A stretch of 5,887 nt of DNA from Escherichia coli (lineage in GTDB: Bacteria > Pseudomonadota > Gammaproteobacteria > Enterobacterales > Enterobacteriaceae): assembly GCF_003334815.1 (NCBI RefSeq), contig NZ_QOWO01000070.1. One strand, 5' to 3'. Positions within the stretch are counted from its first letter, which is position 1. Every line of letters begins with the position of its first letter. The notes under the pieces were generated by a model that was not told the origin of the DNA, searched no databases, and was given only the letters and a program-made list of their open reading frames with translations. Positions 1-5,887 of the stretch are shown here, in pieces. The translations under genes were made by a program, and so were the position numbers.

Positions 1-95
1 ATCGACGATTGCTGGAAAGGCTGGGCCATACTCCTCCGGCAGAAGCAGAAAAAGCTTATTATGCTTCCATCGGAAACAATGATCTGGCAGCCTGA
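1..95 (+). CDS. C-terminal 31 codons of IS3-family transposase OrfB (partial; 5' end outside window)
   Basis: Reading from base 3 gives RRLLERLGHTPPAEAEKAYYASIGNNDLAA then TGA at 93..95. This is the same as the C-terminus of the 290-aa ORF at 3770..4642 except for one D to N change. Confidence 0.8.
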   Translation, partial: RRLLERLGHTPPAEAEKAYYASIGNNDLAA

Positions 96-112
96 GTTCA
101 CAGATAAAACAC

Positions 113-137
113 TCTCCAGGAAACCCGGGGCGGTTCA
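113..137. repeat. Terminal inverted repeat (IRR) of IS629-like copy 1, about 25 bp
   Basis: The reverse complement of the terminus, TGAACCGCCCCGGGTTTCCTGGAGA, matches the IRL at 5811 (TGAACCGCCCCGGGAATCCTGGAGA) at 23 of 25 positions. Exact IR length is approximate. Confidence 0.65.
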
Positions 138-145
138 CTTCCCAA

Positions 146-179
146 CCATAATATTTCTGTCATTTCTGCCCCCTATTAT
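146..179 (+). promoter_or_regulatory. Putative promoter of the phytase-like gene: a perfect Pho-box half-site CTGTCAT (157..163), a 10-bp spacer, and a -10-like TATTAT (174..179)
   Basis: CTGTCAT is the 7-bp PhoB half-site consensus, and its spacing to the -10 resembles PhoB-dependent promoters. The distal half-site (146..152, CCATAAT) is weak, and no canonical -35 is present. Confidence 0.25.
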
Positions 180-226
180 GACGTTGTTTTTACTTCTGAG
201 CGATAACAACGAAAAGAGACAATGAC

Positions 227-1570
227 ATGCACAACTCCAAAATCCGACAAGCTGTACTGGTTGGATGCATGACGCTGAGCGCTAACCTGTGGGCCGAAGC
301 GCAGCCGGTGCAGGCAACGCTGGCTGGGCATGCACTGTTGCCAGTAACATCCGCCGTTTCAACTCCGAAGGATGCGCCGAGCGATCTGCAACAGAGCGGC
401 AAATACACCAGCGGCAAACGCGTCACCGAGCTGGGCAGCGTGGCGGGCAAATCCGCAGATCGTCTGACTGGACTCGGCCTGCCGATCAACGGTCAGCCGT
501 TGCAGGGCCACTCAGGTATCAAACACATGCCCGACGGTACCTACTGGGTGCTGACTGACAACGGCTTCGGCAGCAAAGCCAACTCCCCGGACGCCATGTT
601 GTACCTCAACCACTACAAAATCGACTTCAAAGACGGCACGGTAGTACCGCTGAAGACGCTTTTCCTGCATGATCCGGATAAGAAGGTACCGTTCCACATC
701 ATCAACGAGAGTACCGAACAGCGCTATCTGACCGGCAGCGATTTTGATCCCGAAAGCTTCCAGTTTTCCGACAATGCCTTATGGATCGGTGATGAGTTCG
801 GTCCTTACCTGATCAAGACCGACCTGAACGGCAAGGTGCTGGCGGTGTTCGATACTGAAGTGGATGGAAAGGTGATTAAATCGCCGGACAACCCGACGCT
901 GACCCTACCTGGCGCGCCGGACGGCAAGCAGAATTTCCAGGTTGCGCGTTCCAAAGGCTTTGAAGGCATGGCCATCTCGCCGGACGGCAGTAAGCTGTAT
1001 CCGCTGTTGGAAGGGGCATTGTGGGACGGTGAGCAGTTCGAGAACGTTGGCGGAAAACGCTACCTGCGTATGCTGGAGTTCGACGTCAAACAGCAGGTCT
1101 GGACTGGTCGCAGCTGGCAGTACGTGCTGGAAGACAACCAGAACGCCATCGGCGACTTCAATATGATCGATGACACCCACGGGCTGGTGATCGAGCGCGA
1201 CAACGGCGAAGGCACTACGGATAAAGCCTGCGTCGTCGGTGCGCCGACCAACAACTGTTTCAGTCAAGTAGCCAAGTTCAAACGAGTGTATAAAATCGCT
1301 TTCTCGGACACTAACGTCGGTAAACCTGTCGAAAAACTGAGCTATATCGACCTGATGAATATTCAGGATCCGAACAAGCTGGCACGCAAGCCGCTGAGTG
1401 ACGGTGTGCTGACCTTCCCGTTTGTCACCATCGAGAACGTGGATGTGGTTGACGCGAACCACATTATTGTAGGCAACGATAATAACTTCCCGTTTTCCTC
1501 CAGCCGCTGGCCTAATATGGCGGATGACAACGAGTTTATTCTACTTAATGTGAAGAATTTTCTGAAGTAG
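227..1570 (+). CDS. Sec-secreted phytase-like beta-propeller protein (esterase-like activity of phytase type family), 447 aa; function uncharacterised
   Basis: Long ORF with an N-terminal Sec signal peptide (hydrophobic core LVGCMTLSANLWA followed by EAQ) and a weak RBS (AAGAGA) 8 nt upstream. Repeated motifs (DNGFG, GDEFGP, FEGMAISPDG, ERDNGEG, GNDNNFPF) look like the phytase-like fold. The family call is from memory, not a search. Confidence 0.7.
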   Translation: MHNSKIRQAVLVGCMTLSANLWAEAQPVQATLAGHALLPVTSAVSTPKDAPSDLQQSGKYTSGKRVTELGSVAGKSADRLTGLGLPINGQPLQGHSGIKHMPDGTYWVLTDNGFGSKANSPDAMLYLNHYKIDFKDGTVVPLKTLFLHDPDKKVPFHIINESTEQRYLTGSDFDPESFQFSDNALWIGDEFGPYLIKTDLNGKVLAVFDTEVDGKVIKSPDNPTLTLPGAPDGKQNFQVARSKGFEGMAISPDGSKLYPLLEGALWDGEQFENVGGKRYLRMLEFDVKQQVWTGRSWQYVLEDNQNAIGDFNMIDDTHGLVIERDNGEGTTDKACVVGAPTNNCFSQVAKFKRVYKIAFSDTNVGKPVEKLSYIDLMNIQDPNKLARKPLSDGVLTFPFVTIENVDVVDANHIIVGNDNNFPFSSSRWPNMADDNEFILLNVKNFLK

Positions 1571-1792
1571 GGGGGAGATCATCTCATCGCTTACCTTAAA
1601 ACTATCATAAGGGTTTACTTCCCTTCAGCGGCGCACAAGGCGCAGGCTTCTGGCTTTCAGTCTTATCCAGGAGGAACATACTGAAAGGCCTGAGTAAACA
1701 TGAATAAAAGGAATATTATATAACAGATGATTCTAAACCACGCGACAAAGCGTTGAAGGAAGCCTGCGCGCAGCATGACGGGGCTTTACCAT

Positions 1793-1826
1793 AAAAAAAC
1801 GCAGGCTAACCGCGCCTGCGTTTTTT
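1793..1826. terminator. Bidirectional rho-independent terminator shared by the convergent phytase-like gene and phoX
   Basis: A perfect 8-bp GC-rich stem (ACGCAGGC at 1799..1806 pairing with GCCTGCGT at 1814..1821) with a 7-nt loop, flanked by an A7 run (1793..1799) and a T6 run (1821..1826). It lies 20 bp downstream of the phoX stop. Confidence 0.8.
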
Positions 1827-1845
1827 ATGACGGATGAAGCAGAAA

Positions 1846-3825
1846 TCAGGTGCCGATCATACCGCCGTCGGCTTTCACGATAACGACGGTTGAGGAACGC
1901 GGACGACTGGCCTTATCGCCGTCGGGCCAGCTTGATACTGCCGTCGGATGCTGCGGATCGCTCAGCCCTTCGGCTGGCTCGCCAGGGTGCTGGATGTTAA
2001 TAAACAGCGTCCGGTTATCCGGCGTGAACGCGATGCCGGTGATTTCGCAGCCACGCGGGCCGGTCAGGAAGCGGCGAAACTCGTTGGTACCGGGGATCGT
2101 CGCCACCATCTGGTTGTTGCCCATGCCTTCGTAATCTTTACGGTTGATGGTTGATGACGACACGTCGGTCTGGATCCACAGCACGCCGCGGTGATCGAAG
2201 CTCAGGCCGTCGGCGCTGCCGAATTCCGCGCCCTTCATGCTACCTTTGGCTTCCGGTTTGTCAGTATCGGTGCGACCGCCCATCACCAGAATATCCCAGG
2301 CGAACTGCAGCGCGGTCGGGTCGCCGTTCTGCTCCAGCCAGTGAATGATGTGACCGTAAACGTTTTTGCCGCGCGGGTTGGCCGCATCCACCGGCGCTTT
2401 GCCTTCCTTACCGCGATCGCTGTTGTTGGTGAGCGTGCAGTAAACGCTGCCTGTGTGGTATGGATCAACCGCAATCCACTCCGGGCGGTCCATTTTGGTG
2501 GCGCCCACGGCGTCTGCCGCCAGACGGGTTTTAATCAGCAGGTCGCCCTGGTTTTCAAAGCCTTTGCTGGCGTCAAGCCCGTTTTGGCCGAACACCAGCG
2601 GTAGCCACTCGCCTTTGCCGTCATCGTTAAATTTCGCCACATACAGCGTGCCTTTCTCCAGCAGGCGCATGTTGGCTTTGCGATCCCGCGGGTTGAATTT
2701 GCCTTCCGAGACAAATTTATAGATGTATTCGAATTTCTGGTCATCGCCCATATAAACCACAACGCGGTTATCCGGGGCGAGCGTCACCGCCGCGCCTTCG
2801 TGCTTGATGCGGCCAAGCGCGGTGTGCTTGCGCGGCACTGAATGCGGATCGTATGGATCGATTTCCACCACCCAGCCGAAGCGGTTCGGCTCGTTCGGCG
2901 TGACGTCAACGCTGAAACGCTTATCCACTTCGTTCCAGCGGTAAGAGCCGTCGCTGTCGCTGATGCCGTAACGTTTTTCCAGCGGGTTCATCTCCGCTTT
3001 TTTCACGAAAATATCGGACCAGTTCTCTTCGCACGTCAGATAGGTGCCCCACGGCGTAAAACCGTTGGCGCAGTTCTGCATGGTGCCGAGAATGGTTTCG
3101 CCTTTCGGATCGTCAGCCGTTTGCATCAGCGGGTTATGCAGCGCCGGGCCGGTGATTTTCATCGGCGTGTTAACGGTGATGCGGCGCGCGAAAGATGACG
3201 GGCGCACCACTTCCCAGCCCTGGGCCGCTTTTTTTACTTCAATGACCGACACGCCCATTGCGTTCTGTCCTTTCAGCGCTTTATCAGCGCTCCAGTTGGC
3301 ATCGCCATCTTTAAACAGCAGACCGTTATCGATGTATTCATGGTTCATGGCGAGCAGGCCGTGATCGACGCTGTGCCCGCCCTGCGGCAGGCTAAACCAC
3401 GCCATACCGTCGTGGTGCATCCCGGCCTGCGCCGCCTGCTCTTCCGTGGTGTTGCTGCCGTCGGTTTTAAAAACCGGCTGATTCCCGGCAAGCCCGGTGG
3501 CGTCGCCCCATTTGTATAAGGGCTTCGCGATGTAGCCTTCCGGCACGATAACGGTATCTTCCGTGGAAACCGGCAGACTGGTGAAACCGAGCGCCGTCGC
3601 TTTGCCGAGGTTACCGCTTACGCTGGAGACCGCTTTCGCCAGCGCGTTTTCCGGTTTCAGCAGAAACGGGAACGTTGCCGCGGCACCGGCGACCGCGCCT
3701 GTCTGTAACAGGCGGCGGCGCGACAAATAGACTTCCGCCACCTGCGAAAACGCGCGGTTATCACTCGGGTTGCTGGTCTCTTCACTATGCTCACGTTTGA
3801 ATAAAGTTTTTAACGATCTGCCCAT
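1846..3825 (-). CDS. phoX: PhoX-family alkaline phosphatase/phosphodiesterase, Tat-exported, 659 aa
   Basis: N-terminal twin-arginine motif LSRRRLLQTGAVAGAAATFPFL followed by an AxA-type cleavage region (ALAKA). Size and beta-propeller-like composition are typical of PhoX, including a WGTYLTCEENW motif. An RBS (AAGGAAA) lies about 8 nt upstream of the ATG at 3825. Confidence 0.8.
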   Translation of the reverse strand: MGRSLKTLFKREHSEETSNPSDNRAFSQVAEVYLSRRRLLQTGAVAGAAATFPFLLKPENALAKAVSSVSGNLGKATALGFTSLPVSTEDTVIVPEGYIAKPLYKWGDATGLAGNQPVFKTDGSNTTEEQAAQAGMHHDGMAWFSLPQGGHSVDHGLLAMNHEYIDNGLLFKDGDANWSADKALKGQNAMGVSVIEVKKAAQGWEVVRPSSFARRITVNTPMKITGPALHNPLMQTADDPKGETILGTMQNCANGFTPWGTYLTCEENWSDIFVKKAEMNPLEKRYGISDSDGSYRWNEVDKRFSVDVTPNEPNRFGWVVEIDPYDPHSVPRKHTALGRIKHEGAAVTLAPDNRVVVYMGDDQKFEYIYKFVSEGKFNPRDRKANMRLLEKGTLYVAKFNDDGKGEWLPLVFGQNGLDASKGFENQGDLLIKTRLAADAVGATKMDRPEWIAVDPYHTGSVYCTLTNNSDRGKEGKAPVDAANPRGKNVYGHIIHWLEQNGDPTALQFAWDILVMGGRTDTDKPEAKGSMKGAEFGSADGLSFDHRGVLWIQTDVSSSTINRKDYEGMGNNQMVATIPGTNEFRRFLTGPRGCEITGIAFTPDNRTLFINIQHPGEPAEGLSDPQHPTAVSSWPDGDKASRPRSSTVVIVKADGGMIGT

Positions 3826-4642
3826 TGCGGTTTCCTTTCAAAAAATCGATTTCAAGGGGAATCATTTTTATGCACGTGAGTCTACGGAAAGTATGTTACA
3901 GAAATATAATGAGATACAGCGCGTATACGATGAAAATCATCAGGTGTACGGTGTGCGTAAAGTCTGGCATCAGTTGTTACGGGAAGGAATCAGGGTGGCC
4001 AGATGTACAGTGGCGCGCCTCATGGCGGTTATGGAACTTGCCGGTGTTCTCCGGGGTAAAAAGGTCCGCACAACCGTCAGCCGGAAAGCCGTTGCCGCAG
4101 GCGACCGCGTAAACCGTCAGTTCGTGGCAGAACGTCCAGACCTGTTGTGGGTGGCTGATTTTACTTACGTCAGCACATGGCAGGGCTTTGTTTATGTGGC
4201 GTTCATCATTGATGTGTTTGCCGGATACATCGTGGGATGGCAGGTCTCATCGTCCATGGAAACGACATTCGTGCTGGATGCACTGGAGCAGGCGTTGTGG
4301 GCCCGTCGGCCGTCCGGCACAATTCATCACAGCGATAAAGGCACTCAGTATGTATCGCTGGCCTACACGCAGCGGCTTAAGGAAGCCGGATTACTGGCAT
4401 CAACAGGAAGTACTGGTGACTCGTATGACAACGCGATGGCGGAGAGCATCAATGGTCTTTACAAGGCGGAGGTAATACACCGTAAGAGCTGGAAAAACCG
4501 GACAGAAGTGGAGCAGGCCACACTCACGTGGGTGGACTGGTATAACAATCGACGATTGCTGGAAAGGCTGGGCCATACTCCCCCGGCAGAAGCAGAAAAA
4601 GCTTATTATGCTTCTATCGGAAACGATGATCTGGCAGCCTGA
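3770..4642 (+). CDS. IS3-family transposase OrfB (DDE integrase core), 5'-truncated fragment; the first 45 or so codons of this ORF are not IS-derived, so it is probably non-functional
   Basis: DDE-type motifs are present (WVADFTYV, HHSDKGTQYVS, AESINGLYKAEV) and the C-terminus LERLGHTPPAEAEKAYY is typical of IS3-family OrfB. There is no upstream orfA or frameshift window, and the ORF's 5' end overlaps the phoX start on the other strand. Confidence 0.8.
   Translation: MLVSSLCSRLNKVFNDLPIAVSFQKIDFKGNHFYARESTESMLQKYNEIQRVYDENHQVYGVRKVWHQLLREGIRVARCTVARLMAVMELAGVLRGKKVRTTVSRKAVAAGDRVNRQFVAERPDLLWVADFTYVSTWQGFVYVAFIIDVFAGYIVGWQVSSSMETTFVLDALEQALWARRPSGTIHHSDKGTQYVSLAYTQRLKEAGLLASTGSTGDSYDNAMAESINGLYKAEVIHRKSWKNRTEVEQATLTWVDWYNNRRLLERLGHTPPAEAEKAYYASIGNDDLAA
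3864..3901 (-). promoter_or_regulatory. Candidate phoX promoter: -10-like ATAAAAAT with a weak Pho-box-like CTGTAACATACTTTCCGT about 12 bp upstream (on the phoX-sense strand)
   Basis: Position and spacing relative to the phoX ATG are plausible. The proximal half-site matches the consensus poorly. The site lies at the junction with the truncated IS copy. Confidence 0.2.
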
Positions 4643-4684
4643 GTTCACAGATAAAACACTCTCCAGGAAACCCGGGGCGGTTCA
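3905..4684 (+). mobile_element. 5'-truncated IS3-family (IS629/IS1203-like) copy 2: the 3' roughly 60 percent of the element, with IRR but no IRL and no orfA
   Basis: Recognisable OrfB sequence starts around EIQRVYDENHQVYGVRKVW (about 3911) and runs to the terminus ...CGGTTCA at 4684. Upstream of about 3905 the DNA is the phoX 5' region. The left boundary is approximate, give or take about 15 bp. Confidence 0.8.
4660..4684. repeat. Terminal inverted repeat (IRR) of IS629-like copy 2
   Basis: Same terminus as 113..137. Similarity to 1..137 ends exactly after TTCA at 4684. Confidence 0.65.
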
Positions 4685-4705
4685 CAATTTTCTTCAACTG
4701 CAGGA

Positions 4706-4735
4706 CCTGACGGAAAACAAGTGATTTCCGTCAGG
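4706..4735. repeat. Perfect 11-bp inverted repeat (hairpin) CCTGACGGAAA / TTTCCGTCAGG with an 8-nt loop, 21 bp outside the IS629-like right end
   Basis: The two arms are exact reverse complements, read directly from the sequence. No U-run follows on either strand, so it is not a canonical intrinsic terminator. Confidence 0.6.
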
Positions 4736-4951
4736 GAGAAATCGCTTAGCGGGTGTTATCGCAGAAATTCCCACGGAGCCCCATCAACGCCAACCGGTGT
4801 ATATTTCATTTGTGGAGTCTCCAGTCTGAGGGAGCTTTATGCATCCCGTATTGGGCACTATGATGCCGGAAATCTGCGAGGCTCCACACCTGCCAGTTTC
4901 ACCCTTTTAACCATCATACTGCTCCGTGTTTAATTGTGTGGGATGCGTTCA

Positions 4952-5122
4952 TTACATTTTCACCATTTTGCCACTGCGGCCCCGGAAGACGAAGATATGC
5001 CCGGAGAACGGGTCATCTTTCAGCGTGTTCTGCACCTTCGAAGCTAGGCCGTTGAAGCCACAACGCATATCTGTGATGCCAGCGATGATCCAGATTCTGG
5101 TACCGGTCGGCAGCGTTATCAT
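4952..5122 (-). CDS. tnpB: IS66-family TnpB (orf2), truncated: 56 aa where about 115 aa is expected
   Basis: My own translation of the minus strand gives MITLPTGTRIWIIAGITDMRCGFNGLASKVQNTLKDDPFSGHIFVFRGRSGKMVKM then a stop, carrying the IS66 TnpB hallmarks (TDMR.GF.GL, DPFSGH.FVFRGR). Its ATG overlaps the upstream ORF's TGA as ATGA, the usual IS66 orf1/orf2 coupling. No frame continues the TnpB sequence beyond 4952. Confidence 0.7.
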   Translation of the reverse strand: MITLPTGTRIWIIAGITDMRCGFNGLASKVQNTLKDDPFSGHIFVFRGRSGKMVKM

Positions 5123-5796
5123 CGGATCCCCCCTTTCATTTCGCGAATGAGCACCCTAAGAAGTTCCGGAGTGAGAGGGGCAAACAGTTTTACCACACCT
5201 GATTTAAGATGCAGCTCACACTGTGGTGAGTCTACGGTAGTGTCACTCTGGCTTTCATCAGACTTATTTCGCCAGAAAGGATTTGTCACCGGTTTGACGG
5301 GGTCAGGAGTCTCAGTGATTGCCACCGGAACGGCCTGGCATTCCTGGAGATCCTCATCATTCAGCAAGCCCTCTTCATACAGTCTTTTCCAGTTAAACAA
5401 CAGATTGTCATTAATATTGTGCTCTCTGGCGATCCGTGCAACGACTGCACCAGGCTGTAATGCCTGTTTTACCAGCCTGATTTTAAATTCACGACTGTAG
5501 GAGGTTCGTCGTTCTTTTCGCCATGTGCTTTCGCTGATTTGAGGATCATCAGGTAATTCCTTCTTTCTGTTGGCATAAAGTATGGCATCGAGTTGGGCGA
5601 CTGAAAGTGATTCAGGTAATGGCCAGGTAATACCGGAGGCATTAAATCGTTGAAAGAGATTATGAATGGTGGAATGACTGAGACCTAACTGCAGGGCGAT
5701 AGCCCGGACAGATAATTGCTCGTCGAATCTTAGACGTAATGCGTCTGGCAAATAAGAGCGAAAGCCGGTGATATCTTTTGCTGTCTGAGAATTCAT
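5119..5796 (-). CDS. tnpA: IS66-family TnpA (orf1)-like HTH protein (C-terminal 130 aa or so) with an N-terminal 90 aa or so resembling an IS21-family IstA HTH; a possible in-frame chimera
   Basis: The C-terminal part (RRTSYSREFKIRLVKQALQPGAVVARIAREHNINDNLLFNWKRLYEEG ... ELHLKSGVVKLFAPLTPELLRVLIREMK) has the IS66 orf1 HTH and C-terminal pattern and is translationally coupled to tnpB. The N-terminal part (LSVRAIALQLGLSHSTIHNLFQRFNASGITWPLPESLSVAQLDAILY) resembles the IstA N-terminus with its WPLP motif. Both calls are from memory. Confidence 0.6.
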   Translation of the reverse strand: MNSQTAKDITGFRSYLPDALRLRFDEQLSVRAIALQLGLSHSTIHNLFQRFNASGITWPLPESLSVAQLDAILYANRKKELPDDPQISESTWRKERRTSYSREFKIRLVKQALQPGAVVARIAREHNINDNLLFNWKRLYEEGLLNDEDLQECQAVPVAITETPDPVKPVTNPFWRNKSDESQSDTTVDSPQCELHLKSGVVKLFAPLTPELLRVLIREMKGGIR

Positions 5797-5810
5797 CGTT
5801 CGTGTCCATC

Positions 5811-5835
5811 TGAACCGCCCCGGGAATCCTGGAGA
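5811..5835. repeat. Terminal inverted repeat (IRL) of IS629-like copy 3
   Basis: Matches the reverse complement of the right-end termini at 23 of 25 positions. Confidence 0.7.
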
Positions 5836-5863
5836 CTAAACTTCCTGAGAAAGAGGTAAACAG

Positions 5864-5887
5864 GATGACTAAAAATACTCGTTTTTC
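5864..5887 (+). CDS. N-terminus of IS3-family OrfA (MTKNTRF...), partial at the window edge
   Basis: An ATG 53 bp inside the IRL with an upstream AGAGG. MTKNTRF is the start of the IS629/IS1203-type OrfA as I remember it. Confidence 0.7.

Follow-up and report, generated by a model that had tools for sequence, protein, structure and literature searches.

A one-ended IS629/IS1203-type remnant joined to the edge of a putative Pho-box promoter of phoX in an Escherichia coli plasmid mosaic

Insertion sequences (ISs) of the IS629/IS1203/IS3411 group belong to the IS3 family, are 1310 bp long and carry two genes, orfA and orfB, which are linked by a −1 frameshift. In this family the OrfAB protein is the transposase, and its copy-out, circle-forming reaction requires both ends of the element. 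A target-site duplication of 3–4 bp flanks elements of the family. Elements sharing more than ~90% nucleotide identity are, by ISfinder practice, regarded as isoforms. In the IS629 annotated by its authors on pO157 Sakai (AB011549.2), orfA occupies IS nucleotides (nt) 55–381 and orfB nt 378–1268. Here we describe a partial copy of such an element in a 5,887-nucleotide stretch of Escherichia coli DNA (assembly GCF_003334815.1, contig NZ_QOWO01000070.1), the whole of which is referred to as the window. We found that window 3911–4684 is an inert 3′ remnant of an IS629/IS1203-type element of the IS3 family, with boundaries and missing parts that can be shown, and that it is joined to the DNA upstream of phoX, which forms a cassette with a phytase-like gene. 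The remnant is already known, in that public records annotate a partial transposase (the RefSeq label from the Prokaryotic Genome Annotation Pipeline (PGAP) in NZ_AP045059.1, NZ_CP027106.1, NZ_CP104529.1 and NZ_CP141865.1 reads [quoted passage not shown]), and it is an ordinary IS remnant.

Local alignment of window 3701–4720 to a full-length copy gave a single ungapped block, IS nt 534–1310 against window 3908–4684, at 94.3% identity. The window was also projected on the full IS and on two native phoX loci, L002 (plasmid CP099215.1) and L003 (the chromosome of strain 23CRST011), which located the break between bases 3910 and 3911: the T at 3910 is native and not IS, and the G at 3911 is IS and not native. 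The remnant therefore corresponds to IS nt 537–1310, a length of 774 bp. A preliminary description of this DNA, made from the sequence and its open reading frames (ORFs), had started the feature at 3770 and supposed 400 to 500 bp to be missing from its 5′ side. The alignment to a full-length IS629 reference which it proposed has now been run, and corrects both values: IS homology begins at 3911, 3770 is the TTG of a mechanical ORF and the missing part, ending at IS nt 536, is 536 bp long. Its figure of about 780 bp for the homology retained was close to that found.

The remnant is 94.4% identical, without indels, to the adjacent full-length copy in L001 (plasmid pJNE25-005_2 of E. coli JNE25-005, NZ_AP045059.1), 94.3% identical to Sakai IS629 over 774 ungapped bases (233/243 amino acids (aa)) and 95–96% identical to copies which PGAP names “IS3-like element IS1203 family”; among intact copies the highest value was 96.1% (L012). 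High identity and collinearity with a named reference thus make it an isoform within the IS629/IS1203 group. The right end typical of the IS3 family, TGAACCGCCCCGGGTTTCCTGGAGA (− strand), terminates exactly at 4684, and a pattern search found three inverted repeat (IR) matches in the window, at 137, 4684 and 5811, where 0 were expected in shuffled sequences.

The catalytic part of the element is complete. Pfam rve matched the remnant over model positions 2–101 of 102 (E = 5.5e−25) and rve_3 was also present; HTH_21 matched over positions 10–60 of 60, its first 9 positions being absent, and the NCBIfam IS3 transposase model NF033516 scored 272 bits against a cutoff of 160, over model positions 138–369 of 369 only. 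The D, D and E codons are found at 4157–4159, 4334–4336 and 4442–4444 (fragment residues D83, D142 and E178); the second D and the E are separated by 35 residues, which is the DD(35)E spacing of the IS3 family. It follows from the Sakai coordinates of orfA and orfB that the remnant is without the left inverted repeat (IRL), orfA, the A-run/pseudoknot frameshift region and orfB codons 1–53 (536 bp). No homology to orfA (tblastn) or to IS nt 1–536 was found beside the remnant, the sole such homology in the window being at 5811–5887, in a third copy. An Rfam scan of the window gave no RNA family at all, and so no ALIL frameshift pseudoknot; as a positive control, Rfam RF01497 was found at IS nt 336–452 of the full-length neighbour in L001. 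The two-ORF, −1 frameshift organisation of the IS3 family is thus absent here; orfA and the frameshift signal are missing through truncation, and the sequence is a remnant of an IS3-family member, not a functional member. Likewise, of the imperfect inverted repeats (5′-TG...CA-3′) that should stand at both ends, the right one (IRR) is present and there is no IRL at the left of the remnant, so only one original end survives, with CAA as its right flank, the left flank having been deleted. With one IR, no orfA and no frameshift signal, the remnant is therefore unable to transpose alone. All of this bears out the preliminary description, which had read the copy as a one-ended, non-autonomous element with an intact catalytic core, lacking orfA, frameshift site and IRL.

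At the junction (...GAAATATAAT/GAGATACAGCG..., the slash marking the join) there is no clean microhomology (0 bp; at most an imperfect 2-nt AA overlap) and no IS terminus. Neither a third element at this join nor IR-like sequence at or near 3911 was found. The phoX loci of L002 and L003 match the window at ~94–95% up to 3909/3910, and beyond 3910 both continue with the native sequence AATTGT(C/T)ATAAAAAAC..., which has no counterpart in the window; DNA upstream of phoX has therefore been lost from the window by deletion. This native DNA extends 45 bp further in L002, where IS2 follows, and ~640 bp in L003, without an annotated gene, as far as an IS911-like remnant. In the complete carrier plasmid NZ_AP045059.1, which contains two intact IS copies as well as the remnant, neither an orphan piece of IS nt 1–536 nor the lost native sequence is present anywhere. 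Neither an inversion nor a split fits this, and the event was a deletion; inversion was rejected for this reason. Relatives of the plasmid phoX at ~94–95% nucleotide identity were also seen in IS-flanked islands of some E. coli chromosomes.

The preliminary description had proposed a comparison with related genomes for genes lost upstream of phoX. L002 and L003 supplied the native continuation, but no gene names: among 100,044 species representatives there was no PhoX more than 81% identical in aa (the best were those of Franconibacter helveticus and Enterobacter pulveris DSM 19144), and in the phoX loci of species representatives the upstream neighbours differ and DNA similarity stops ~15 bp upstream of the ATG, so that the lost genes cannot be named.

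As had been suggested before, the truncation coincides with the phoX promoter region: the ATG is 85 bp downstream of it, and it falls 2 nt within the outer half-site of a conserved, putative Pho-box-like motif. As a Pho box we took an 18-bp site made of two 7-bp direct repeats 11 bp apart, located ~10 bp upstream of the −10 and replacing the −35. A motif, (C/T)TGTTATAAAnnTGTAA(C/T), is common to the phoX upstream regions of ~35 Enterobacteriaceae species representatives, in which it ends 51–69 nt from the phoX start codon and is followed 10 nt downstream by a −10-like hexamer (TACACT, TAGACT or TATAGT); CTGTCAT-type versions are found in more distant genera. Its architecture of two half-sites resembles that of the PhoB sites of E. 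coli pstS (CTGTCATAAAACTGTCAT) and ugpB (CTATCTTACAAATGTAAC) (PMC3465305). In the window the outermost two bases of the 18-mer (3911–3912) are IS-derived, changing the native TT (TTATTAT... or TTGTTAT...) to TC. The cross-species comparison places the −10 of phoX at TAGACT (3879–3884), and an alternative −10, CATAAA at ~3866–3871, was dropped. The assignment as Pho-box-like was made because of positional conservation, not because of score; the conserved motif may be a working, PhoB-dependent Pho box.

We searched 5426 complete E. coli genomes and the 72,556 plasmids of PLSDB for the junction and for intact copies of the element. The exact junction was found in 4 of the genomes, in each case on a plasmid, and in 7 PLSDB plasmids, giving 8 records, 2 of them from E. 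albertii. The junction string was identical in all six of the plasmids that were fetched, which indicates one inherited event. The cassette is 98.9–100% identical among carriers. The IS pieces beside it differ from carrier to carrier: on the left, L001 has a full-length IS, L005 an inverted one, L008 (pRM14721) a 14-bp tail and L009–L011 a 174-bp tail. Five of the 8 carriers have a remnant cut still shorter, at IS nt 706 or 795. In L005 (8971), L010 and L011 (both 8118) the break after IS nt 706 accompanies the loss of ~40 bp between two CGTCAG repeats, and in L009 (8208) the break after IS nt 795 lies beside a group II intron. Since the remnant has been cut down while phoX and the phytase-like gene are always intact, selection appears to act on the cargo genes but not on the DDE reading frame.

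Among these genomes and plasmids, intact copies reached at most 96.1% identity to the remnant, and the source lineage was not found. In comparisons with intact copies, third codon positions accounted for 22/30, 29/43 and 32/43 of the coding differences, with no indel or stop, so that most of the divergence predates the truncation and arose in a functional lineage. Judging from these substitutions, the remnant descends from a separate isoform lineage rather than being a copy that has decayed heavily.

The explanation which we consider well supported and probable overall is that one deletion of the end-joining type fused the IS remnant to the edge of the putative Pho-box promoter of phoX. A full-length element would have stood upstream of phoX in the orientation of the present fragment, and a single non-homologous deletion would have taken away 536 bp on its left (IRL, orfA, the pseudoknot-bearing frameshift region and orfB codons 1–53) along with the neighbouring DNA up to position −85 of phoX, the two ends then being joined bluntly. 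The phoX-side breakpoint would fall at the outer edge of a PhoB-type promoter, leaving phoX its −10 and all but two of the 18 Pho-box bases; phoX presumably stayed expressible only after deletions of this kind. From this single event we infer that selection for phoX expression fixed the endpoint. The remnant would then have persisted as passenger DNA of the phytase-like/phoX cassette as this spread among plasmids of E. coli and E. albertii. An illegitimate, end-joining type of deletion appears to be the simplest reading because the IS breakpoint is internal (between nt 536 and 537), there is no IS end and microhomology is not clean. Several points weigh against this explanation. No pre-deletion intermediate, with a full-length IS of the remnant's isoform upstream of an intact phoX region, was found, and the ancestral arrangement is a reconstruction. 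The enzymology of a deletion is not readable from one junction, and a single endpoint at the edge of a motif could be a coincidence. The 18-mer of the window scores 12/18 against the Pho-box consensus, which is not significant in itself, such scores being frequent by chance: 17 sites in the window reach or exceed it, compared with 8.3 in shuffles.

The preliminary description had attributed the truncation to an IS-mediated adjacent deletion, in which intramolecular transposition catalysed by the transposase would remove the left half of the IS and the DNA as far as phoX. The loss of DNA upstream of phoX stands, as the L002 and L003 loci show, and in this IS-rich mosaic at least two other copies of the same family could supply transposase. 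The mechanism does not fit, however. Adjacent deletions catalysed by transposase begin exactly at an IS end, join that intact end to new DNA and leave the IS whole, whereas here the IS-side breakpoint is internal, with nothing resembling an IR near 3911 and no third element, and no other IS end or scar was seen at the junction in any of the six fetched carriers. We therefore regard this mechanism as highly unlikely. A transposase-initiated nick or break at the IRL (an aborted excision), followed by resection in both directions, reaching 536 bp into the IS and some way into the flank, and by end joining, is a possible sub-mechanism of the end-joining deletion, to which we assign a low probability. 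It would resemble what the IS-excision enhancer (IEE) does with IS629: IEE and IS629 transposase produce IS-adjacent deletions of a few nt to >40 kb, and IEE performs microhomology-mediated end joining in vitro (PMC9943667). The imperfect AA overlap is compatible with end joining. The events described in PMC9943667 nevertheless remove the IS and leave no half; no iee gene or other direct trace was visible in the window, evidence for IEE in the replicon not having been sought; and a blunt junction fits any illegitimate recombination equally well, including replication slippage or a gyrase-mediated event.

Another way to obtain half an IS beside phoX would be a split, with a mobile unit that carries the cargo and ends at 3910 going into a resident IS between nt 536 and 537, and the other half of that IS lying, now or formerly, past the unit's far end. 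The cargo (138–3910) is indeed flanked on both sides by IS629-type sequence in the same orientation. This was rejected on the ground that 3910 is not the end of an element, native phoX upstream sequence running past it in L002 and L003. Moreover, the piece flanking the cargo on the left is an IS tail with its IRR (nt 1137/1174–1310) and not nt 1–536, the complete plasmid has no orphan 1–536 fragment, and the 3-bp flanks, CAG and CAA, show no target duplication; the chance that the IS was split is, in our estimation, extremely small. It could also be asked whether the fragment was kept as a domesticated, DDE-only truncated transposase acting as a trans-inhibitor or regulator of IS629 copies. 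The mechanical ORF (3770–4642, TTG start at 3770) is a chimera of 290 aa whose first 47 codons are antisense to phoX and its leader and whose remainder is IS-derived; it is open and undecayed over 243 IS-derived codons, and the in-frame ATG at 3893, which precedes the junction by 18 nt, would yield a DDE-only product of 249 aa. Against this, the frame is interrupted in 5 of the 8 carriers at the two later breaks, before or just after the first catalytic D; a consensus scan, uninformative for a promoter of PhoB type, found no sigma-70-like promoter in 3700–4800 on either strand; and the third-codon bias is explained by divergence before truncation. We give next to no credence to such a role.

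The window as a whole is an IS-rich plasmid mosaic of E. coli type (Table 1). L001 is 99.98% identical to window 1–4782 and the match ends exactly after 4782. PhoX and the phytase-like protein matched no NCBIfam model, and Pfam was used for both. The 98-bp Tn3-family remnant ends in ...CGCAGAAATTCCCACGGAGCCCC; the same 98 bp are uninterrupted in L007, beside a resolvase/Tn3-family transposase, and lie 53 bp from another IS629-type IRR in L006. That IS was the only one found when a full-length IS was sought at the Tn3-remnant site of the fossil. The IRL of copy 3 begins 14 nt upstream of the start codon of the IS66-family tnpA.

Table 1 Coordinates of features in the 5,887-nucleotide window
Feature	Position	Strand	Basis or remarks
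Copy 1 tail and IRR, IS nt 1174–1310	1..137	+	134/137 identical to Sakai IS629; 1310 bp full length in L001
Phytase-like esterase	227–1570	+	Pfam PF13449
phoX, 659 aa, intact; PhoX alkaline phosphatase with TAT signal	1846..3825	−	Pfam PF05787 2–515/515, E = 4e−167, and TAT_signal; PGAP “PhoX family protein”
ORF 5′ extension, non-IS	3770..3910	+	Antisense to phoX codons 1–19 (3770–3825) and phoX leader; IS homology does not extend left of 3908
Retained native phoX 5′ region, 85 bp: leader, −10-like TAGACT (3879–3884), most of Pho-box-like motif	3826..3910	−	~95% identity to L002/L003 up to 3909/3910
Pho-box-like 18-mer (putative) TCATTATATTTCTGTAAC	3895..3912	−	Positional orthology with conserved phoX upstream motif
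Deletion junction	3910..3911		Native phoX upstream (...AGAAATATAAT) joined to IS nt 537 (GAGATACAGCG...)
IS fossil, nt 537–1310 of 1310-bp IS629/IS1203-type (IS3 family) element	3911..4684	+	774 bp, ungapped alignment
Truncated orfB frame, OrfB residues 54–296 (243 codons), and stop 4640–4642	3911..4642	+	Pfam, NF033516, DDE positions
IRR, TGAACCGCCCCGGGTTTCCTGGAGAGT read from end	4658..4684	−	27 bp; pattern search and IRL/IRR comparison
Tn3-family transposon terminal remnant, 98 bp, adjoining fossil IRR	4685..4782		Same 98 bp in L006, L007
IS66-family remnant	4783–5810	−	tnpA intact 5119–5796, NF038385 293 bits; tnpB 4952–5122 cut to model 1–47/90
Copy 3 IRL and orfA start, IS nt 1–77	5811..5887	+	74/77 identical to Sakai IS629; sole IRL/orfA sequence in window

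The two cargo genes are convergent, the phytase-like gene on the + strand and phoX on the − strand. A seam at 1585–1588 separates two segments of separate source: 144–1584 is homologous to an E. coli chromosomal phytase-like locus (L004), and 1589–3910 to phoX loci (L002). Of 80 phoX loci of species representatives, 79 do not have the two genes side by side, the exception being a Lautropia metagenome-assembled genome (L058). The best match to the Pho-box consensus in the window is CCATAATATTTCTGTCAT at 146–163 (+), which scores 14/18 where 0.2 sites are expected at that score or above; it lies 63 nt upstream of the ATG of the phytase-like gene and 9 nt from the IRR of copy 1. The Pho-box-like sites of both cargo genes are thus located at the outer edges of the cassette, each beside an IS junction.

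The left junction of IS and cargo (between 137 and 138 in the window; 4014 in L008, 4171 in L009, 4169 in L010 and L011, 5025 in L005) was found in three states. In L008–L011 the IRR is followed by ATCC-CTTCCC, the ATCC, also seen in L004, being native; CTTCCC follows the IRR directly in the window and L001; and in L005 a full-length IS is inverted, its IRL abutting CTGCCC. These states point to more than one insertion or rearrangement of IS629 type within 4 bp. In L001, copy 1 (left flank 4780–4827) is inserted in IS911-like sequence, ...AAAAAAAGAAATTTCAGCGCAG being followed by TGAACC, and its flanks, CAG and CTT, show no matching 3-bp duplication. A composite transposon would have a target duplication around the whole unit and move as a block to unrelated sites. 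One running from the IRL of copy 1 to the IRR of the remnant was not supported: in L001 the left flank is CAG and the right flank CAA, with no target duplication, and in 5 of the 6 fetched carriers the left IS is a 14–174-bp tail or is inverted, so that no IRL is available.

The preliminary description had also considered the remnant a recombination substrate. Its 774 bp are 94–96% identical to the other copies, with longest perfect runs of 66–99 bp. RecA-dependent exchange needs a minimum of ~25–30 bp, and sequence divergence depresses homologous exchange. Exchange with IS629-type copies is therefore possible at 4–6% divergence, but no mosaic pattern proving exchange between the remnant and the other copies was seen. 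A further and more speculative idea, which we think improbable, is that the IS junctions trimmed a phosphate-scavenging cassette (phytase-like protein and PhoX) to the outer edges of its putative Pho boxes, and that the IRR of the remnant is still a working transposase substrate when paired with the IRL of a full-length copy. If true, such pairing would help to move or re-flank the cassette among plasmids of E. coli and E. albertii, and use of the IRR would account for the differing right-hand DNA of carriers whose remnants are otherwise identical. In L008 the remnant is identical at 774/774 bases, but an IS256-family remnant and not the Tn3-family one lies to the right of its IRR (between 8564 and 8565). 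A similar junction of IS1203 and IS256-family sequence occurs, at 85.8% identity, in 57 other genomes, the matches listed being O111-type chromosomes. The right flank of L008 would be due either to a later end-specific event at the IRR or to a crossover in the last ~60 identical bases.

The significance of the remnant is small beyond annotation hygiene. Reading the raw ORF (3770–4642) overstates the IS remnant by 141 bp, and comparison with related loci fixes its endpoint to the base. The junction is a clean single-event marker with which the phytase-like/phoX cassette can be traced through at least 8 plasmids and two Escherichia species. A deletion that stopped at the edge of a Pho-box-like motif may provide a small example of selection on a cargo promoter limiting IS-associated deletions, and the remnant is a possible recombination substrate, 4–6% diverged, for the many IS629-type copies in such genomes.

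Compared with the IS629/IS1203/IS3411 group, the remnant shares collinear nt 537–1310, the position of the stop, a 27-bp IRR with the TG...CA terminus and the DD(35)E residues, and differs in the absence of nt 1–536 and in its 4–6% divergence from every intact copy found. IEE-dependent excision of IS629 (Kusumoto et al. 2011), as far as it is presented in PMC9943667, which cites it, has in common with this locus the IS629 element, the loss of adjacent DNA and little or no microhomology; the excision products described there lose the whole IS, whereas the window keeps half. The partial IS copies (“IS remnants”, pseudogenes) on E. coli and Shigella virulence plasmids are the same kind of object, from which the remnant is set apart solely by a breakpoint at the edge of its neighbour's Pho-box-like motif.

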